From the IMG/VR virus record IMGVR_UViG_2563366827_000005: a stretch of DNA of 33,965 bases; one strand, written 5' to 3'. The notes under the pieces were generated by a model. The model ran no database searches. It worked only from the letters and a program-made list of their open reading frames with translations, and was not told the DNA's origin. A program made the position numbers and the translations under genes. Below, piece after piece: positions 3,592 through 12,897 of the stretch (position 1 is its first letter; each line of letters starts with the position of its first letter). The stretch comes from a virus. Lineage: Duplodnaviria > Heunggongvirae > Uroviricota > Caudoviricetes.

Positions 3592-6039
3592 TTAACCGTC
3601 ATGCATCATGCTGGCACGGGCGCGCGCACGTTTATCCCGCTCGTATTTTTCGAGCGCATCCTGTAACTGGCGGTCAAGCGGTGTCCCCGGCGCAGTACCG
3701 CCCGTCAGGCTGATGTGATATTCGTTTTTACTCTGGTCCACATAAGAGCGGCCAGCCGGTGCCGTGACCGGCTGATAAGCCTGATAACCTGCATAAGAGC
3801 TGGTCGCCGGAATATAACCACCGCTGCCATACGTGGCGGCTTGAGTTCTGGCGGCGGTCTGGTCAAGTGTGCCTGACTCTTTGTTGATGACGCCGAGTTT
3901 TTCCAGTACCCAGTCAATACCGCCGCGCAGTTTGTTGAACGCATTAAGCGGCAGCATCAGCGCGTCAGCCAGTGCCTGCCCGAACATGACGCCCGTGTCA
4001 CGGCAACGGTTCAGGGTGTCCTGGGTGGCTTTGACCGGGGCAATCAGGTTTTTAAACCACTGCCACGCGGCCTGTAACTTTTCACCCAGCCAGTCAAACA
4101 CCGGCTTAAGTGGCGTGAACAGTTCCCCCACTGGCGCAAATGCTGCTTTCAGCCCTTCAACCACACCGCCAAAGAATGCGCTGACAGGCTCCCAGTATTT
4201 ACGGATAAGCAACGCCCCGGCGACAATGGCGGCCACCACAGCCACAACCGGCCAGCTAATCGCCCCGATGGCCGTCATAACAGCACTGCCAACCGTCGTG
4301 AAGATTGCCCCCATTGCGCCTGCTGCCGCGATGATGGCATTAATGCCGGTGATAACCGGCCAGGCTACAAGACCAATTGCACCGATGATGCCAATAAGCG
4401 CCAGTGCGCCACCGACAATAAGGCCGATGGTTGACGCCAGTGATTTGTTTTTCTGGATCCAGCCGTCGAGTTTTAACACATACTTTGTGGCCGTCTGCGT
4501 GAGATTACGCAGTGCGCCTTCCTGCTGGTCAAACAGGTCAGTCCCCACCGCCTCATAAGCAGACTGAAACTCCTTAAAGTCACCGCCTAGGTTGTCCTGC
4601 ATGATATTTACCAGCTCGGCGGTCTTCCCGTCTGAGGCTTTAAACGCAGCGGTCAGTTTGTCCAGCTTTCCGGTTGAGGCGGCAGTCATCAGCACGGCGG
4701 CGGCTGAGCTGGCCTCCTCCCCGAAAATAGTTTTCATGTATTCAGCCTGCTGGGCAGTACCGAGCCGGTTTTTCTCAAAACTGGCCTGCATTTCTTTCAG
4801 AATGGTAAATATTGGCCGGGTGTTTCCCTTGCTGTCTGAGGTTTTCACTCCAAGCTCTTTGAGTGCATCCCATGCTTTTCCCGTCGGTGCCTGCAGGCGG
4901 CTTAACACGGCACGGCTTCCCGTCCCCGCCATTGAGCCTGTGATTTTTGCATCATGCAGCGCCCCGACCATTGCGGCGGTTTCTTCAATGCTGACACCGG
5001 CATTTTTTGCCACAGGTGCGGCATAGGTCAGCGCATCGCTCATGCCGTCAAAATCGGCGGCGGTTTTGTTCATCGTCATGGAGAGAACATCCCCGATATG
5101 AGCGACCTTATCGTTTGAAAGCTGAAAGGCGGATTTCATCCCCATCAGCAGGGCGGCGTTTTCTTCCATCGTGCGGCGGTTCGCCAGCGCCATATTCAGC
5201 GTGACCGGCGTTGCCGCCTGAATGGCATCAACATCCCCACCCGCTTTCGCGATGATTATCTGTGCACCGGCCGCATCATCCGCCGAGGCGGCGGTATTGT
5301 CGCCGAGCTGGCGCGCCTGTTTGCGTAGTGCGGTCATTTCGGCGGAGTCTTTTGCCACTCCGAGCACGGCCTGCAATTCTGAGTTTTTCTGCGCAAACTC
5401 ATAACCGGGCATCAGCAACTTAACTCCGGCCATCGTTCCCGCCGCCGCAATCCCCACACCGGCAGCGCCTACTGAGGCCATATTTCCGGCCAGTTCCTTT
5501 CCGGCCTGATAACGCTGTTTGACTGCGTTAAGTTTTGCCTGTTGCGCACTGACACGCGCCAGCGCGTCGCGCTGACGGTTAAGCTGTGCGGTGGTTTCAC
5601 TGATACGGTTTTTCAGTCCCTGCTCATCATGTGCAAGATTGCGGGTATTAATTCCCACAGCGGCCAGTTCCCGCTGCTGGCGTTTAACGGAATCCGTCAG
5701 GCGGTTATATTTCGCCTGTAAGTCCTCCGCCGCTCGCTTTGCGGATTCCAGCACTTTCGCCTGAGCACTGGTCGGACGTTCGGTGTTTTTAAACTGTGTG
5801 GCAAGGGCTTCGGCTTCCTGCCGTGCCTTTTCAAGTGCATGACCAGTCACGGCGAGCTGCGCACTGGTCTTGCGAAATCCCTCAATACGGGATGCGTGAC
5901 CGTTCAGCTCGCGCAGTGATTTTTGTGTTTCCCGGATATCCCCCGACAGCGACTTGCTCACTGTGCGGATGGATTTAAACGGGCGGGATGCCTGGTCAAC
6001 AGCCCTGAGCAATACCTGTAATTTTACATTGTTACTCAT
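3592..6039 (-). CDS. T: Tail tape measure protein T
   Basis: 815 aa, Ala/Gly-rich with hydrophobic central segment, coiled-coil N-terminus; P2 gpT length and position. Confidence 0.9.
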   Translation of the reverse strand: MSNNVKLQVLLRAVDQASRPFKSIRTVSKSLSGDIRETQKSLRELNGHASRIEGFRKTSAQLAVTGHALEKARQEAEALATQFKNTERPTSAQAKVLESAKRAAEDLQAKYNRLTDSVKRQQRELAAVGINTRNLAHDEQGLKNRISETTAQLNRQRDALARVSAQQAKLNAVKQRYQAGKELAGNMASVGAAGVGIAAAGTMAGVKLLMPGYEFAQKNSELQAVLGVAKDSAEMTALRKQARQLGDNTAASADDAAGAQIIIAKAGGDVDAIQAATPVTLNMALANRRTMEENAALLMGMKSAFQLSNDKVAHIGDVLSMTMNKTAADFDGMSDALTYAAPVAKNAGVSIEETAAMVGALHDAKITGSMAGTGSRAVLSRLQAPTGKAWDALKELGVKTSDSKGNTRPIFTILKEMQASFEKNRLGTAQQAEYMKTIFGEEASSAAAVLMTAASTGKLDKLTAAFKASDGKTAELVNIMQDNLGGDFKEFQSAYEAVGTDLFDQQEGALRNLTQTATKYVLKLDGWIQKNKSLASTIGLIVGGALALIGIIGAIGLVAWPVITGINAIIAAAGAMGAIFTTVGSAVMTAIGAISWPVVAVVAAIVAGALLIRKYWEPVSAFFGGVVEGLKAAFAPVGELFTPLKPVFDWLGEKLQAAWQWFKNLIAPVKATQDTLNRCRDTGVMFGQALADALMLPLNAFNKLRGGIDWVLEKLGVINKESGTLDQTAARTQAATYGSGGYIPATSSYAGYQAYQPVTAPAGRSYVDQSKNEYHISLTGGTAPGTPLDRQLQDALEKYERDKRARARASMMHDG

Positions 6040-6459
6040 TCGTGTTTCCGCTTCGCCGGAGCGCCTTTTCGCGCCATGTGATGAGTTCGGTCAGGCTCAT
6101 GGGATACAGTTCTGATGGCGGCCAGTGAAATATCACTGCCACATCCGCCATCAGGTCATCGACCGAGAGATTTTTCGGAAACGTCACTGCACCGAGTTCG
6201 GCGACAAAAAACCAACCACCTTACCGGCCAGCGCCACAAGGTCAGGCAGTTCCAGCGCGGCGACTTCCTGCTCGGTCAGCATCGGTGCCGTCATGCGCGG
6301 CAGCACTTTAATCAGTGCATCGACTTCGGAGTTCGCGACTGCAGCCAGACTGACACCGCGCAGCGTCCCGGCATTGGGTTTCATCAGCGTGACCTGTTCG
6401 ATAACCTGCTCACCACGTTTGACCGGATTGTCCAAGGTAATGACGTTTTCTTTGTTCAT
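6032..6459 (-). CDS. Tail assembly chaperone E+E' fusion produced by programmed -1 ribosomal frameshift
   Basis: Hand translation of the -1 frame from the slip site gives ...GFF-VAELGAVTFPKNLSVDDLMADVAVIFHWPPSELYPMSLTELITWREKALRRSGNTNE-stop, total 142 aa, ending at TAA 6032..6034 and overlapping the T start by 8 nt. Confidence 0.75.
6184..6459 (-). CDS. E: Tail assembly chaperone E (in-frame product)
   Basis: 91 aa ending ...KVVGFLSPNSVQ; slippery TTTTTTG lies near its 3' end; P2 gpE length. Confidence 0.85.
   Translation of the reverse strand: MNKENVITLDNPVKRGEQVIEQVTLMKPNAGTLRGVSLAAVANSEVDALIKVLPRMTAPMLTEQEVAALELPDLVALAGKVVGFLSPNSVQ
6205..6211 (-). promoter_or_regulatory. Slippery heptamer T-TTT-TTG (minus strand) for the E/E' -1 frameshift
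   Basis: caaaaaa on + strand equals TTTTTTG on the coding strand, in the GGT-TTT-TTG (G-F-L) context near the end of E. Confidence 0.75.
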
Positions 6460-6515: not shown

Positions 6516-7034
6516 TCACAGGCCGATATTGCGGCGGTGTTGCTCCAGCCGGTCGACGCCGTTCACCTTCTCAATCATGTTGATGGTGTCGATTTCGACC
6601 AGCTCCTTACCGTCCATCGTCAGCCGGAAATAGGTGCAGACCACGGAGATTTTCGACTCGGTGTCTTCTCCCTGTTTGCCCTCGCCGGTGTCGATTTCTT
6701 TCTGACGTCCACGCATGACCACCTCGACGGCCACCGTTTCGCCGGTATCGTCGCGCTGGTAAGAGCCTGCAAAACGAATCGGTACGGCATCCACACCGGT
6801 TGCGGCGTAAAGCTCCCAGATAACCGAATCCGGGAAACCACCGAGCGACCACTCCATTGACAGCGCATCGTCATCAAGGCCGAGGTCTACCGGTGCGCTG
6901 CCGTTCATCCCCGCACCGCGATAGTTTTCGAGCTTACGGGTCAGTTTTGGCAGCGTGACGGACTTTGCAACGCCCTGATAGCTGTAGCCGTTCAGAAAGA
7001 CGTTCATTAACTTGAGTTTGCGCGGCATTGCCAT
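6516..7034 (-). CDS. FII: Tail tube protein FII
   Basis: 172 aa, P2 gpFII length and synteny. Confidence 0.85.
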   Translation of the reverse strand: MAMPRKLKLMNVFLNGYSYQGVAKSVTLPKLTRKLENYRGAGMNGSAPVDLGLDDDALSMEWSLGGFPDSVIWELYAATGVDAVPIRFAGSYQRDDTGETVAVEVVMRGRQKEIDTGEGKQGEDTESKISVVCTYFRLTMDGKELVEIDTINMIEKVNGVDRLEQHRRNIGL

Positions 7035-7046
7035 CGGTCAGGCTCC

Positions 7047-8237
7047 TTAATTGCTATTAACCGAAGTGACCAGACTTGCCAGGTATCTGGAAGTAATACG
7101 CTGGCGCAGGGTCAGGTTTTCGAGAGGAGGCACCGGGGTATAGTCGTAGTCGATATACAGTTTTCCGGCCTTGAGGGTTTCCGCATCGTTGGATTCTTCG
7201 CTGAACCAGCAGGTCGCATCCACGATATAGCCGTTTGTTTTCAGCTCACGGAATTTGGCATTGATGCCGTCAACGATGTCGCGAATCAGCGTTGCGGTGA
7301 TGGGCTTGTCCACCGCCCACATGTGCGCCTCAGCCATCGTATCGGCCAGCACCTGCGCGGTGCGGGTGTAGTTTTCAAAGAGGAACAGCGGGTCATCAGA
7401 GCAGGTACGGTTACCCCAGAAGCGTAAACCGTCACGGCGAATCAGCGTTGTGACCCCTGACTCGTTCAACAGGTCAGCATCGGTGCCGGACTCCTGCAAA
7501 TCCCAGAATACAGATGCGCTGATGCCGGTAACACCGTTCACCCCGACATTGGACAGAGTTTTATGCCAGCCCTGCTCCTGGTCGATTTTAGCGCGCAGGC
7601 CCAGTGCACGGGCAGTGGCATACGCGGTGGCGGTGGTACTGGTGACCGTATCCCATGCGAGGAAATCCGGCCAGATGACCATCAGCTCACGCTGGCTGAA
7701 ATTCTGGCGGTAGGCTTTCACCTCGGAAATAGTCTTACATCCCCATGCGCTGATATACCCGAAAGCACGCAGCTTCTGACAGACAGATGCCAGTGCAACA
7801 GCCACCTCTTTGGTATCCAGTCCCGGCACGCCGAGAATACGCGGTTTAACACCGGTTACCGACTCCGCCGCCAGCAGGGCTTTCAGTCCGGTGTACTGAC
7901 CGTTTTCGTCGGTGGTGCCGATGATATTGGAAACGGTCTGCGCGAGTTTCGTTTCTTCGTCGTCGCCGGTGCCGTCTTCCACACGTACGACAACGGTGAC
8001 CGGTTTTGACTGGTCGGCGATGGCCTGCAACGATGCCGCCAGCGTGCCTTTTTTACCAGCCTTTGCAATTGCGCTCTGCACATTGGTAATCAGCACCGGT
8101 TTATTGAGGGGGAAGGTTTCCGCATCTGCATCGCTGGCCGTGCAGACCATGCCGACAATGGCCGTGGATACGGTGGAAATGACGCGGGTGCCGTCGTTAA
8201 TCTCCAGCACCTGCACGCCGTGATGATAGTCACTCAT
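7047..8237 (-). CDS. FI: Contractile tail sheath protein FI
   Basis: 396 aa, P2 gpFI length and synteny, first gene of the F-E-T-U-D operon. Confidence 0.9.
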   Translation of the reverse strand: MSDYHHGVQVLEINDGTRVISTVSTAIVGMVCTASDADAETFPLNKPVLITNVQSAIAKAGKKGTLAASLQAIADQSKPVTVVVRVEDGTGDDEETKLAQTVSNIIGTTDENGQYTGLKALLAAESVTGVKPRILGVPGLDTKEVAVALASVCQKLRAFGYISAWGCKTISEVKAYRQNFSQRELMVIWPDFLAWDTVTSTTATAYATARALGLRAKIDQEQGWHKTLSNVGVNGVTGISASVFWDLQESGTDADLLNESGVTTLIRRDGLRFWGNRTCSDDPLFLFENYTRTAQVLADTMAEAHMWAVDKPITATLIRDIVDGINAKFRELKTNGYIVDATCWFSEESNDAETLKAGKLYIDYDYTPVPPLENLTLRQRITSRYLASLVTSVNSN

Positions 8238-8680
8238 CCGTTTAACTCCGTGGTTAATGGGTGCAACTATTTTCTGTTGTGCAGAGCATGAGACGCTATT
8301 TGACCTGGCTGGTCAGGGGATGAAACAACAGATAAAGAAAATGCGGGCAATTCGCCCGCCTGTCCTGATTTGTACACACTCATTTTCCGACTGACTATTT
8401 AGATAGCCGAAACGCTATCAAATCTGACAGTCTGCTTTGAGCGAGGAGCAAAGGTTAGACCAGACTTATCTTTAGGGATGTTTTCTACCCTCATGTTGAC
8501 GTTATTTTTAAGCGATAAATCTATTGTTATGGAGCTGATTATATTTTCAGACACTAATTTGGATTACTTCATATTAATCTGGCCGATATATGAAAGGATC
8601 TATTACAGCCAGATTTAGGATAAGTTTATGCTCTTCCTATATAATTTTAAGTATCAGCTTTAGATTCTGCTGCACCCGCA

Positions 8681-9166
8681 TTACCAACCTCGCTCTTTAA
8701 GCCTTTGCTGCACATGTGATGCTGTCATTTTTAGAATATCAGGTAGAATAATTTCATTACCTTGAGAAGGTTGAAACGAGGCATTACGATTGGCAAAGAG
8801 GTCATGAAACCTAGTGTCTGATGTAATCATGACGGGAAGATTGTTATATCCCCGGTCGTTGAACTGATCTGCAGTCAAATCAACAATCATTCCATCCACG
8901 ACAAGCCAAGCATGTGAATTACCGTTTGAAAGACCGCTGGCGGGGGACTTATGATCAGATTCATAGTAATATCCTGCGAGTACTTCAGAGACTATCCCGA
9001 ATTGCTGATAAAGCAAATAAGCAAGCAGTTTCGATGTATCCCCGCAGCATCCCACTGGAAAGTTCGAATTTCTAAAGGATGACAGCCGTGAATGATCTTT
9101 TTTGGTCATCTTCTCAAGTGCTTCACGCACATCAACACAAAAAATTTTTAACTCATCTTGATTCAT
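8681..9166 (-). CDS. Cargo gene 2: small protein with transglutaminase-like (papain-fold) Cys-His-Asp signature; function unknown, candidate effector
   Basis: 161 aa; motifs VGCCGDTSKLLAYLL (Cys40/41 at a helix start), NSHAWLVVDG (His85) and IVDLTAD (Asp) match the TGL-superfamily pattern GxCxx[FY]A ... HAWxEV ... D[PA]T; AT-rich; ATG with AAGGT Shine-Dalgarno. Confidence 0.45.
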   Translation of the reverse strand: MNQDELKIFCVDVREALEKMTKKDHSRLSSFRNSNFPVGCCGDTSKLLAYLLYQQFGIVSEVLAGYYYESDHKSPASGLSNGNSHAWLVVDGMIVDLTADQFNDRGYNNLPVMITSDTRFHDLFANRNASFQPSQGNEIILPDILKMTASHVQQRLKERGW

Positions 9167-9252
9167 CTAGTTACCTTTTATTGTCTACACAACCATAGAA
9201 TTAAATTTAATTGGCCCGTAATGCACTATCATTTAACTACTAAATAGAAAAG

Positions 9253-10038
9253 TCAAATAGGATTAAAACGTAGCGCAAATTCTCCATATTTTTTTTCAGC
9301 CCGATGAAACTTCACATGGCTTAGACCATTTTCACTACATATATTTTTGATTTTTGCAATATCCTGTTCCAGCGTTTTCAAACCAAAAAAAACATCAGTT
9401 ATTGCCTCTGGCTTAATCTTATAGGCTCCAATATTACTTTTATAAACTCTAATCTCCTCTTCATAATTCCAATCCATTGATTTCGTAGAGAGTGTGTCGA
9501 GTATTGATTTTTTAGGGTCTCTAAGATAATTTAATGGAATATATTGCTTCATATATACTATGTTTTGGGGGGTTATAAAGAACTCTGGATCCTTAGCAAT
9601 ATTGAGTTTTATAGCAACTCCGGTATGGTTCTCCGCATAATGAGACCATAAAAGAACATTTTCATTAGTTTTAGATAGCGATAAAATGCCATGGGCATTG
9701 ACGGCATTTGTTTTTATATTTTTAACTAGATCATTAAATGCTTGGCTGTTTTCTTTATACACATCTATTAAGTTCTGCTTTGCCTTCTTGGTTAATCCAT
9801 TCTGATATGAATATAACCAACAAGTAAAGTCTGATAAAGAGTATTCTTTTTCCTCATCCAGCATACAATCAAATGGATCATTAAAATTTTCCGCTGATGA
9901 AAAGTAAAATTCTTTTTTTTGAAGAATATCACAGGCTTTATCTATAGTTCTGAACTTGTAAACTGATTCTGGGTAGGTGCCTTCATTTATTCCTTTAAGG
10001 ATTAAATCTTTTTTATCCAACCATCTTATTCCTGACAT
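9253..10038 (-). CDS. Cargo gene 1: DUF2971-family protein; function unknown
   Basis: 261 aa from the ATG at 10038, preceded by a strong SD (AAGGAGG, about 7-nt spacer); the ORF-track start at 10059 is a TTG. Motifs VYKFR...FYFSSAENFNDPFD and LSLSKTNENVLLWSHYAENHTGVAI match what I recall as DUF2971 hallmarks. AT-rich. Confidence 0.5.
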   Translation of the reverse strand: MSGIRWLDKKDLILKGINEGTYPESVYKFRTIDKACDILQKKEFYFSSAENFNDPFDCMLDEEKEYSLSDFTCWLYSYQNGLTKKAKQNLIDVYKENSQAFNDLVKNIKTNAVNAHGILSLSKTNENVLLWSHYAENHTGVAIKLNIAKDPEFFITPQNIVYMKQYIPLNYLRDPKKSILDTLSTKSMDWNYEEEIRVYKSNIGAYKIKPEAITDVFFGLKTLEQDIAKIKNICSENGLSHVKFHRAEKKYGEFALRFNPI

Positions 10039-10368
10039 TTGATTCCTCCTTATTATCAATAACTTTCATTGGTCTTTTCGCACCACAATTTTAGACTAAA
10101 CACAATGCAAATCAACATGATTGTAGTGTCGGTGATTGTCTTACTGGTCACCAGATACTATACCGCTAAGATCAGATTAAAGGGAATGATTCTTTATTAT
10201 GTAGCAAACTTTAGAGGCCGGGAGTAATCGTGGGTAGCTCTGTTACACTGTTATAATGGGTTAGCATAGCCCATGTGATCAACGCCCGCTTTTGGCACAG
10301 AGCGGACTGTCAGATTAGGCTTTACTCTGTGCCATAGATATGTAAGCTCACACCAGAGTTCATACAAC

Positions 10369-10896
10369 TTATTGCGGCATTTCCGGCCATTCAGGATTTG
10401 CAGGATCCACACGACTGACCAGAACGCTGTAGCGTTCCCAAGCCTCCAGCCGTGTGCGCTCCTCCTCTGTTGCCATGTTCAGTCTGACCGCGCGCTCCAG
10501 CGGCAAAATCACGGATTCAGCATCTGCAAGAAGTCTGGCTTTCCGAATTTCTGCCTGCTGCTGTAATTCCTCTGCCGTATAAATGCGTTTAATCACTTTG
10601 CCGTCCTTAAACATCCAGCCCCCTGAAATATCCGCCCGTCGGTTAGCAGTAATATCCGCCACTTCAACCACACTTAATCCATCCGGTCTGATAGCTGTCA
10701 CATCCTTTTCCACATAGCGGATGATATTATCTTTGTCGTACGCTATTTTTATCGTGTCATCAGCAAAATACTTTTGTTCTTCGTACCAGTTCTTACCATC
10801 TTCTGTAAAAAACCAGACAACATCAAAGCCCTTTGTCAATTGATATTGTTCAACCGTTTTTGGATTACCCGCCGTAATATTTTTTAAATGCTGCAT
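10369..10896 (-). CDS. G: Tail fiber assembly protein G
   Basis: 175 aa, P2 gpG length and position directly downstream of H; N-terminal half is AT-rich. Confidence 0.85.
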
Positions 10897-10899
10897 AAA

Positions 10900-12897
10900 T
10901 TATACCTGTGCCACGTTATACCATGTCCCGTTAATGTATTTCTGCACCGGTCTGTAATATACGCCACCAATGTTATCGGCAGAGTTTGAGCCGGTATCCT
11001 GAATAATAATGCCGGAATATACACACCCGGACGGTGCCTGATGTGTCCATGTCATGCCATTGTTCGCAGGTTTGTATGTGGCAGCACCACCAAGCCGGAT
11101 ATCCCGGACATAGCGGGAATCAAAGTTACCGTAATCTGTGGGATTAACACGACCCGTAATATTTATGGTTTTATTACTTTGAATGCTACCGGAGACAAAG
11201 CGCATAACATGAACGTTATTAGCATAAACATCCAGATTACCGTCACCATTTTGTTTAAAGCCCGTGTCATTATCACCCAAAACAATTGAGTTACCGCCAA
11301 GAACACTGGATGTTCCGATGCCCAGTGCACCATTCAATTGACCTCCAGATAATGACAACGCCCCAACATCAGCAGCAGTCGGTTTAATGTGCGAACTGTA
11401 AATTACATATACAGTTCCATCTGTAAGACCTGTTGGTTTATTCGCTGTATAAGTTGGTGATGTATGAATCGTTACGCTGGCGTTACTGGTATAATCCCAC
11501 TGAATATTAACACCTGTGGCGTAATTACCTATTTCAACATAAACATCATAGGTATCACCGGATGTATTCACCCATGCAAAATTAGTAAATCCAACCGATG
11601 TCCGTCGCCATAACGCACCAGTAAGACCTTTTGGATTTCCATTTCCCGCACGAAGAACAAGTTCAGATATACCAGCCTGCATAGGGGAGTTAACATTATA
11701 TCCAGCACCACCAATCAGACTTATGTAAACCACGGAACTGGCCTGTGGCATGGTTACAGTTGCCAGCCTGAACCATCCTGTACCACCACTAAAAGACATG
11801 GTTGTTGAATTTGTTGCTCCAATATTGCGCAGGAATAATCTTTTATCAGGAATATCCGCGCCATTTTGATCTTTCTGAAGACGTTTTTCAGCATTGTCAT
11901 AGGCAGACTTCACCGCTTTTGGTGTTGCAGCCAGCGTTTCAGAATCGCTGTTGATGGCACTATTGAGCTGAACAAGACCTTTCCGCGCCGTGGTGGCGTC
12001 CTGTGCAGTGTATTTTCCGTTAGCAAGGTCATACGCTGTCTTAACCGCCTTTGGCGTTGCCGCAAGCGTTTCAGAATCGCTGTTGGTGGCGCTACTGAGC
12101 TGGACAAGACCTTTTCGCGCTGTGGTGGCGTCCTGTGCAGTGTATTTCCCATTAGCAAGGTCATATGCTGCCTTTACCGCTTTTGGTGTTGCGGCGAGCG
12201 TTTCAGACGTGCTGTTGGTGGCGCTACTGAGCTGGACAAGGCCTTTTCGCGCTGTGGTGGCATCCTGCGCAGTGTATTTCCCGTTAGCAAGATCATACGC
12301 GGCCTTTACCGCTTTCGGCGTTGCGGCCAGTGTTTCAGACATGCTGTTGGTCGCATTGCTTAACTGAGTAAAACCTTTTGCGGTCAGCGAGGCGTCCGGG
12401 TGACGTCGTGACTGTCCATGCTCTGCAATTTTGTCATCAACGTAATCCTGCGTCGCCATCACCGTTGTGGTGTCAATGGTCAGCGCCACTGAGGCCACAC
12501 TGCTGACGATGATGACCATGCGACAGGTCTGCGAACGCCCTGAGCCTTCGGCAAGAGCTGGCTTATAACTTTCGGCCATGTTCGCCACGGCAATTAATGT
12601 TCCCGCATCATCGTACAGGCCAAGCTCACGCATCCAGAAACCGCCCACCTCCGGCGGAATAACCAGCTCTGCAATAATATAATTACTGTTTCGTTTGTCC
12701 TGGCTGATTTTGTTCAGCGCATGTCGCCAGACTTCATGGATAAGCCCGGTCTGTCCGGCATCCGGGACAGGCAATTTACCACCTCCATCCCCGACGGCCA
12801 TCGTGGTAATGTTGACCTTCCGCCCTCCCGGCGCGGTTGCCGCTGCCAGCTTTGCTGCACCGGCAGTGGTGATAACGGTTCTGAATTTTGTGCTCAT
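10900..12897 (-). CDS. H: Tail fiber protein H
   Basis: 665 aa; N-terminus P2 gpH-like, central tandem 44-aa repeats, C-terminal receptor-binding region of lower GC. Confidence 0.85.
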   Translation of the reverse strand: MSTKFRTVITTAGAAKLAAATAPGGRKVNITTMAVGDGGGKLPVPDAGQTGLIHEVWRHALNKISQDKRNSNYIIAELVIPPEVGGFWMRELGLYDDAGTLIAVANMAESYKPALAEGSGRSQTCRMVIIVSSVASVALTIDTTTVMATQDYVDDKIAEHGQSRRHPDASLTAKGFTQLSNATNSMSETLAATPKAVKAAYDLANGKYTAQDATTARKGLVQLSSATNSTSETLAATPKAVKAAYDLANGKYTAQDATTARKGLVQLSSATNSDSETLAATPKAVKTAYDLANGKYTAQDATTARKGLVQLNSAINSDSETLAATPKAVKSAYDNAEKRLQKDQNGADIPDKRLFLRNIGATNSTTMSFSGGTGWFRLATVTMPQASSVVYISLIGGAGYNVNSPMQAGISELVLRAGNGNPKGLTGALWRRTSVGFTNFAWVNTSGDTYDVYVEIGNYATGVNIQWDYTSNASVTIHTSPTYTANKPTGLTDGTVYVIYSSHIKPTAADVGALSLSGGQLNGALGIGTSSVLGGNSIVLGDNDTGFKQNGDGNLDVYANNVHVMRFVSGSIQSNKTINITGRVNPTDYGNFDSRYVRDIRLGGAATYKPANNGMTWTHQAPSGCVYSGIIIQDTGSNSADNIGGVYYRPVQKYINGTWYNVAQV
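11893..12378. repeat. Tandem direct repeat, about 3.7 copies of a 132-bp unit, inside tail fiber gene H
   Basis: Near-identical 132-bp units visible in the DNA (compare 11941.. with 12073..); they encode KG[LF][VT]QLSxATNSxSETLAATPKAVKAAYDLANGKYTAQDATTAR four times in frame. Confidence 0.85.

Follow-up and report, generated by a model that had tools for sequence, protein, structure and literature searches.

The P2-like (Peduovirus) prophage of IMG/VR record IMGVR_UViG_2563366827_000005, analysed here as a whole stretch of 33,965 nucleotides (the window), has its late genes on the minus strand and carries, in the same orientation and in the interval between the genes G and FI, a two-gene cargo consisting of a DUF2971 gene (cargo gene 1) and a gene for a protein of 161 amino acids (aa; cargo gene 2). 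This interval corresponds to P2's Z/fun locus, which has been recognised as a second hotspot of defence genes in P2-like phages (PMC9519451; bioRxiv 10.1101/2024.10.15.618418). The cargo is bordered by two long spacers, 8238..8680 (443 bp) and 10039..10368 (330 bp), and the question raised by the locus is what these spacers contain. A preliminary description made from the letters alone had placed in them, as probable contents, the FI late promoter, a promoter and a terminator of the cassette's own and, if the cassette were a defence system, possibly a third small or non-coding component. Its statements that neither spacer holds an open reading frame (ORF) of at least 60 aa and that the second spacer is bounded at 10039 were confirmed, the largest spacer ORFs encoding 51 aa (8399-8554, minus), 46 aa, 45 aa, 52 aa (10069-10227, plus) and 53 aa (10251-10412, minus; running into the end of G), and cargo gene 1 beginning at the ATG at 10038. 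Both spacers are AT-rich as described (GC content 0.397 and 0.406 versus 0.508 in the window), but their make-up is composite: the cassette-linked parts have a GC content of 0.335 and 0.38 and the cassette genes one of 0.351, whereas the 24-bp sites and the terminator described below reach 0.54-0.77. Both spacers are explained by P2 control signals, untranslated DNA of the cassette and boundary sites, and the reading that we consider probable is a layered one, in which P2 backbone signals are followed by a landing pad with exchange sites, termed A and B, and then by the cassette's own AT-rich DNA.

Backbone signals, boundary sites and cassette DNA

The backbone layer was recognised by comparison with unoccupied hotspots. 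Among 160 fetched loci encoding FI relatives, in each of which G and FI were located, five E. coli-type phages (FI 95-99% identical) had an empty hotspot with a G-FI gap of just 128-132 bp, in agreement with the earlier remark that the spacers are long for a late region. In the empty gap, 4 nt separate the G stop from the hairpin GGCGGGC-TGAT-TGCCCGCC and its trailing TTTTCTTT, behind which come the PF region and the FI ATG; as this gap holds the terminator and PF alone, 8238-8360 of the window is ordinary P2 control DNA and 8361-10368 is the insertion. The segment 8238-8360 aligns with P2 (NC_001895) at the annotated activator and start sites, with the equivalent of the Ogr-type activator site at ~8305-8331 (TGT-N12-CCA in both the window and P2) and that of the PF start site at ~8261-8263. 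Judged from this alignment, 8261..8331 is the predicted P2-type Ogr-dependent PF promoter, so the FI late promoter that the preliminary description had suspected in the spacers does lie there, inside the first of them.

A GC-rich stem-loop (8343-8359; -14.7 kcal/mol, z = -3.5) followed by the U-run ATTTTCTTT and situated downstream of the operon has the features of a rho-independent terminator, and it is the only terminator-like site across 8100-10500. Because it sits 4 nt past the G stop in the empty hotspots, it is the ancestral terminator of the V-W-J-I-H-G late operon, which the insertion has pushed ~2 kb from the G stop. The terminator that had been ascribed to the cassette is therefore not its own: the sole intrinsic terminator, on the minus strand, is the one that the empty hotspots also possess. 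Unlike the window, P2 has an extra annotated terminator beside fun(Z), inside the cargo; as the window has no such terminator, the displaced ancestral one is the first after G, and late transcripts from G would read through the co-oriented cassette to reach it.

Between this backbone and the cassette lie the outer flanks. The occupied E. coli P2-type hotspots (53 loci and P2) have in common ~85-95 bp past the G stop and ~90 bp before the terminator, and these ends are conserved independently of the cargo in the 53 P2-type loci having both; the FI-side conserved block was found in 1047 of the 5426 complete E. coli genomes among which all E. coli counts were taken. The first letters of the outer right flank, TGTCAGATT, form a perfect 12-bp inverted repeat whose other half lies on the G side, and the two flanks together hold this repeat (AATCTGACAGTC) and a small hairpin, GATAGC-GTTTCG-GCTATC, and show a partial likeness to the 18-nt linker of the B-A junctions described below. 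The inner edges of the conserved blocks form a 29-nt imperfect inverted repeat (8421-8449 versus 10288-10316). No target-site duplication was detected on comparing empty with occupied P2 junctions, and a transposon or miniature inverted-repeat transposable element (MITE) with terminal inverted repeats was discarded on this ground. As in the known repeat-flanked Z/fun cassettes, the inverted repeats are conserved in the 53 P2-type loci and also bound cargo elsewhere.

At these edges, two 24-bp sites lie in inverted orientation, with the consensus GTCCGCT-nn-GTGCCA-nn-AGCGGAC for A, beside G, and GTCCGCT-nn-TCGCTC-nn-AGCGGAC for B, beside FI. Each consists of 7-bp arms, 2 freely varying nucleotides on each side and six nearly invariant central bases. 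Site A of the window has one mismatch to its consensus, with 0 chance matches expected in the window, and site B retains its central hexamer, its inner arm being degenerate and travelling with the cargo. An IMG/VR scan for the arms alone (GTCCGCT-N10-AGCGGAC, centre unconstrained) returned, among the matches listed, two classes of centre, nnGTGCCAnn and nnTCGCTCnn, with TGCCA in 49 of 128 loops and ~35 of the TCGCTC type. Scanning the 3.15 Mb of loci fetched with position weight matrices (PWM) yielded 430 sites; in the first 150 loci there were 191, versus 9 once their sequence had been shuffled. Of 188 pairs of consecutive sites, 120 consisted of an A and then a B of matching polarity, and where a B was closely followed by an A, the spacing was exactly 42 nt in 27 of 43 cases. 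The resulting B-A junction of 66 nt (B, an 18-nt linker and A) is an imperfect palindrome and occurs, never annotated, in 2108 of the E. coli genomes at 1-5 copies each. The sites delimit arrays, such as A1610...B3681, A3723...(B) and A5785...B7291 in a lambdoid prophage of Klebsiella variicola (L174), or the aspV-side island of E. coli CFT073, whose units include a TonB-receptor/ABC-transporter block. At least 81 distinct A...B cargos were counted, among them a UG17 reverse transcriptase with SLATT, a TIR protein (PDC-S35), a CoiA-like nuclease and a GNAT acetyltransferase. Cargo orientation was unrelated to A/B polarity (46 sense, 33 antisense), which argues for a role at the level of DNA rather than of the transcript. 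A third type of centre, CGGCCA/TGGCCG with the same arms, was observed in environmental viral contigs (L189, L217, L220, L230, L233).

The cassette layer was identified by tracing DUF2971 relatives (60-87% identity) to their contigs. Cargo genes 1 and 2 were linked in seven contexts, including two unrelated metagenomic prophages (L172 and L182), the K. variicola lambdoid prophage, integrase-bearing islands beside mntH/mntR in Serratia (L176) and a relative (L180), and a P4-like satellite (L179). In five non-P2 contexts, nucleotide homology spans from 10297-10319 to 8430-8438 and the DNA outside is unrelated; a diverged stretch past the A site was seen in the K. variicola prophage. As this homology covers 10039-10283 and 8454-8680, both AT-rich parts belong to the cassette, the former presumably containing the cargo operon's promoter and leader. 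The boundaries 10307 to 8430 accordingly give the exact unit for testing the DUF2971/161-aa pair. In the satellite, the cassette follows AlpA, Ash and primase genes, comprises DUF2971 and a gene of 161-169 aa, and has no recognisable A/B sites. In two Providencia-type loci (L178 and L181), the DUF2971 gene occurs alone, with homology confined to its coding sequence, and the L178 copy adjoins smpB.

Breakpoints were determined by comparing pairs of sites by their outer and inner flanks, with offsets for A counted from its first base. Between A sites having the same outer and different inner flanks, similarity stopped at a median of +25 (n = 614 pairs; interquartile range 22-26), and in the same class of B sites it began at a median of +1 (n = 703 pairs); these positions are the inner edges of the sites. 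In the reverse class, with the same cargo in different backbones, similarity began or ended at the outer edges. Moreover, among A sites with a common outer flank the outer arm was 0.948 identical and the inner arm 0.836, equal to background, and the arms of B sites were the mirror image, each arm following its own flank. Since the arms co-segregate with the adjacent flanks, exchange is placed in the central region of the 24-mers. In the window, the inner arms (CTTTGCT of B and the G in AGCGGGC of A) are common to the same cargo in other backbones, and the outer arms match other P2-type phages.

A candidate recombinase and the proposed exchange of cassettes

A 200-aa protein comprising a tyrosine-recombinase catalytic domain only (WP_001305361.1) is encoded between B-type and A-type sites in the K. 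variicola prophage (L174), in L193 and in E. coli CFT073, and its gene with these flanks was present in 928 of the 5426 E. coli genomes. The protein matched Xer/XerA and FimB-type models weakly, with XerD/XerA at E ~1e-3 in PDB, and among deposited phage genomes its sole matches were distant integrases of Gram-positive phages. All 13 examined IMG/VR loci encoding close homologues (83-98% identity) were ordered A...B', recombinase, A'...B, with B' scoring at least 14 bits in 12 loci and A' doing so in 11; in these loci the recombinase segment replaces the usual arm-linker-arm between the TCGCTC and GTGCCA hexamers. Beside six distant homologues (58-65% identity), the hexamer of the next site was CGGCCA in four cases and TGACCC in one, and these variant hexamers were also present among the independent motif hits. 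Such co-variation of recombinase and hexamer is suggestive of a cognate enzyme. The recombinase was also noted in L302-L331; it has its own 7-bp inverted repeat (GACAACC/GGTTGTC), and a 12-bp palindrome covers its ribosome-binding site.

We infer from this anatomy that exchange at A and B is site-specific and enzyme-mediated, with the 200-aa tyrosine recombinase as the candidate enzyme. The landing pad would comprise the ~60-70 bp outer flanks and the two inverted 24-bp sites, at which accessory cassettes would swap; inverted arms around an asymmetric hexamer, in two flavours, are the look expected of a tyrosine-recombinase core site. A double exchange of A with A and B with B would replace a cassette without its loss. 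The 5' leader/promoter region and the 3' region of the cassette move along with both genes. Given its degenerate B, the cassette of the window may no longer be exchangeable. The wider proposal, that enterobacterial phages, satellites and islands share a natural exchange system of heterospecific A/B sites with a dedicated 200-aa recombinase supplied in trans, is a tentative one.

Several known systems resemble this arrangement in part. Acinetobacter plasmid pdif modules are bounded by inversely oriented XerC/XerD sites, composed of arms and a 6-bp centre. As in the present case, discrete accessory modules lie between two inverted sites, modules and backbones mix, and the mechanism is inferred from anatomy; in contrast to pdif, the A/B sequences are unrelated to dif (11-6-11), the two ends have different hexamers, neighbouring cassettes have a B-plus-A pair between them instead of one common site, and the candidate enzyme is a dedicated, only weakly Xer-like recombinase. 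A dif-type 28-bp site for XerC/XerD was rejected, as A and B do not resemble dif and differ from it in length and arm sequence. Integrons have attC sites with RYYYAAC (R'') and GTTRRRY (R') boxes and an IntI integrase. Integron cassettes likewise form single-function arrays split by imperfect palindromes of ~60-70 nt, involve a tyrosine recombinase and include defence cargo; unlike them, the cassettes here presumably carry their own promoters, lie in either orientation, have two different ends and reside in phages, satellites and islands. An attC identity was dismissed because neither box is present in A, B or the junction and the matches of the linked recombinase are weak and of Xer/XerA type, not IntI. 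In recombinase-mediated cassette exchange, an engineered laboratory method, a cassette is set between heterospecific lox or FRT sites that have identical arms and incompatible spacers, so that double reciprocal exchange replaces it without excision, as envisaged here; the method differs in being a laboratory design, the incompatibility of GTGCCA and TCGCTC being an assumption of the model. The sequences of A and B do not fit Hin/Gin sites either.

The closest precedent is at the same hotspot, where inverted repeats at Z/fun of P2-like coliphages were reportedly described by Nilsson, Karlsson and Haggard-Ljungquist in 2004 (Mol Biol Evol 21:1). A review states that inverted repeats flank fun in phage and bacterial genomes, enabling site-specific exchange (PMC8987985, citing Nilsson et al. 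2004). The G-FI location, the repeats flanking cargo in both phages and bacteria and the proposal of site-specific exchange are thus shared, and the cargo differs, being the DUF2971/161-aa pair rather than fun. Inverted repeats at the Z/fun hotspot are therefore already known and this cassette is a new cargo of it, while the two-hexamer architecture, the arrays and the linked 200-aa recombinase may be new; full-text literature searches, which did not cover the 2004 original, returned no description of the A/B site sequences or of integron-like defence cassettes.

The usual description of defence hotspots, whether in P2, P4 or other prophages, is just that of variable stretches flanked by conserved genes. 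In the present case the ends of the variable unit are defined; they recur in ~40% of the complete E. coli genomes, structure arrays of single-function cassettes and are accompanied by a candidate enzyme, so that the movement of defence systems between phages becomes a directly testable question and the A...B signature can be used to delimit and mine accessory cassettes. If true, a shared exchange system would explain mechanistically how defence hotspots, whose cassettes are often anti-phage, turn over.

Alternative readings of the sites and spacers

A number of observations weigh against exchange by a dedicated enzyme and against parts of the layered explanation. The recombinase is missing from the window and from most of the fetched loci bearing A/B sites, sharp breakpoints at a shared 24-bp segment are equally expected from short-homology recombination, site B of the window has four arm mismatches, and the function of the ~130 bp of conserved outer flanks is not accounted for. 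Many of the loci behind the motif statistics had been fetched through the motif itself, which does not hold for the P2 loci or for the search of E. coli genomes. In addition, no conserved sigma-70 promoter was found in the 5' spacer; the cassette promoter expected by the preliminary description is presumed to lie in the co-travelling 5' AT-rich DNA. The scarcity of the recombinase and the breakpoints at shared segments fit as well a reading in which A and B are relics of a ~66-nt palindromic repeat, resembling a MITE or a repetitive extragenic palindromic (REP) element, with cassettes swapped by general or phage homologous recombination and no dedicated recombinase; the palindromic nature of the junction, in which B and the reverse complement of A agree at 22 of 24 positions, and its 1-5 copies in so many E. 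coli genomes speak for it too. Relics, however, would hardly keep hexamers nearly invariant beside 2 free nucleotides on each side, or preserve the A/B distinction and polarity over very different backbones, and the recombinase gene is bounded by both hexamers, with its distant homologues going with another one. Moreover, P2 G and FI (96-99% identical) offer far longer homology, yet the breakpoints cluster at the 24-mers. We thus regard homology-driven exchange between repeat relics as rather unlikely. Membership of a dispersed family of the enterobacterial repetitive intergenic consensus (ERIC) or REP type, considered for an 11-nt likeness, was rejected since the ends occur just 1-5 times per genome.

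A role as RNA was weighed in connection with the inverted repeat that the preliminary description had pointed out in the second spacer. This repeat exists, as a perfect 10-bp stem (10293-10302/10325-10334) lying 1-2 nt off the coordinates originally quoted, and folds stably as RNA (-18 kcal/mol, z = -5.2; 0 of 200 shuffles fold as well), as does site A (-11.8 kcal/mol); together with the position of the hairpins directly past the G stop and ahead of the terminator, this would suit terminators, insulators or stabilisers that isolate moron transcripts from late transcription. Such a function is nevertheless very improbable, as no U-run follows A or B on either strand, site B of the window scarcely folds (-3.4 kcal/mol, z = -0.15), the polarity of the sites bears no relation to gene orientation, conservation of the loop hexamers exceeds what a structural role would need, and no compensatory changes between the arms of the long hairpin were seen among 20 distinct P2-type left ends. 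One of these arms (10293-10302) is the centre of site A and the other, 10325-10334 on the plus strand, is a relic inverted copy in the outer left flank, which is P2-specific. The hairpin therefore looks like an inherited palindrome, as far as the aligned copies indicate, and not like a selected RNA fold or an RNA element of the cassette.

The spacers might, finally, hide a third component of the cassette, whether a small protein, an antitoxin-like RNA or a regulatory small RNA. Both AT-rich parts are kept with the gene pair in five other contexts at 70-96% identity, a hydrophobic 40-aa ORF (plus, 10106-10228) and an ORF of 20-31 aa (minus, 10151-10056) are open in most copies, and a hairpin with a 10-bp stem in the cassette 3' region (8576-8615; AATCTGGCTG...CGGCCAGATT) is conserved in all six copies (-16.2 kcal/mol, z = -4.6). 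Set against three distant copies, however, spacer identity (0.70-0.80 upstream, 0.75-0.78 downstream) equals third-codon-position identity in the two cargo genes (0.73-0.82), so that no excess constraint on the spacers is apparent in tests drawing on about four independent lineages and having modest power. Substitutions by codon position numbered 12/16/15 and 10/11/8 in candidate ORFs versus 96/56/131 in the DUF2971 gene, no Shine-Dalgarno sequence preceded the candidate spacer ORFs, and frames and stops varied between copies; the small ORFs at 10106-10228 (plus), 10151-10056 (minus), 8478-8618 (plus) and 8590-8700 (plus) were rejected for lack of periodicity and of frame conservation. The hairpin at 8576-8615 shows wobble-type changes only and no U-run on either strand, and the covariation terms of RNAalifold were unfavourable for the spacers. 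An Rfam search of 7900-10700 at a permissive E-value gave one sub-threshold hit (22 bits versus 50), at the 5' end of the 161-aa gene, a scan for tRNA and tmRNA found none, and 8200-10420 contained no tandem repeats; a type III toxin-antitoxin RNA was excluded, there being no tandem repeat array beside the genes. The P4-like satellite, moreover, retains just ~68 nt upstream of the operon and nothing downstream. The small-ORF, conservation and RNA structure checks proposed in the preliminary description consequently turned against its own suggestion: no third component is evident, a hidden gene or RNA is unsupported by these comparisons, and we hold its existence to be improbable, which removes the suspicion of such a component in the window. 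The only scan hit for a sigma-70 promoter in the 5' spacer, TTGATT-16-TAAAAT (10115-10088), is not conserved in homologous cassettes and was not retained.

Feature coordinates, cargo genes and related hotspots

The features of the locus are collected in Table 1. For cargo gene 1, the ATG at 10038, located 7 nt past AAGGAGG and giving 261 aa as in all homologues, was favoured over the TTG at 10059 of the mechanically called ORF (9253-10059). The cargo was detected at at least 98.9% identity in 12 of the E. coli genomes, E. coli KOr024 (NZ_CP147099.1) matching the window at 99.9% across the locus, and none was found in deposited phages, a megablast search against 50,697 phage records matching the flanks only.

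Table 1. Coordinates of the features discussed, in the window unless another sequence is named
Feature	Position	Strand	Description
T	3592-6039		P2-like late gene
E	6184-6459		P2-like late gene
FII	6516-7034		P2-like late gene
FI	7047-8237	minus	Tail sheath; ATG at 8237-8235
Predicted PF late promoter of the FI operon	8261..8331	minus	Alignment to P2 NC_001895, in which activator site, transcription start and FI are annotated
Putative intrinsic terminator	8333..8360	minus	GCGGGCgaaTTGCCCGC then ATTTTCTTT; hairpin 8343-8359 and T-run
Outer right flank	8361..8429	minus	In all occupied E. coli P2-type hotspots, missing from empty ones
Type-B site	8430..8453	minus	CTTTGCT-CC-TCGCTC-AA-AGCAGAC; PWM 21.6 bits
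Cassette 3' non-coding region	8454..8680	minus	GC 0.335; 75-95% identical in five other contexts
Cargo gene 2	8681..9166	minus	161 aa; weak YunG/transglutaminase-like similarity
Cargo gene 1	9253..10038	minus	261 aa, DUF2971; PADLOC defence candidate PDC-S31, E = 3e-46
Cassette 5' non-coding region	10039..10283	minus	GC 0.38; 70-96% identical in five other contexts
Type-A site	10284..10307	minus	GTCCGCT-CT-GTGCCA-AA-AGCGGGC; PWM 32.8 bits
Outer left flank	10308..10368	minus	In occupied P2-type hotspots, missing from empty ones; ends ...TAATCTGACA
G	10369-10896		Tail-fibre assembly
H	10900-12897		
Recombinase gene	L300 6339-6941		E. coli CFT073, NC_004431 271036-271638
Recombinase gene	L174 7354-7956		
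Recombinase gene	L193 9384-9986		

Other arrangements of the G-FI interval were also observed. In a large class of E. coli P2-type phages (L004, L006, L019-L021, L025, L030, L032, L036, L038, L042, L045, L046, L053, L063), a gene for a Hin/Gin-type serine invertase abuts the PF activator site, and neither the terminator nor an A/B landing pad is present. In P2-like phages of other Enterobacterales (L075, L082, L104, L114, L118, L162), G and FI lie 352-395 bp apart and the interval is occupied by another small insert, which contains a short opposite-strand ORF and GATC-rich palindromes and is devoid of A/B sites. Furthermore, FI genes 81-90% identical to that of this enterobacterial phage were found in GTDB records labelled Chryseobacterium sp. 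18061, Vagococcus sp. WN89Y and a Sporobacter termitidis metagenome-assembled genome (L088, L090/L093, L155), and these contigs are probably contaminated or mis-binned.

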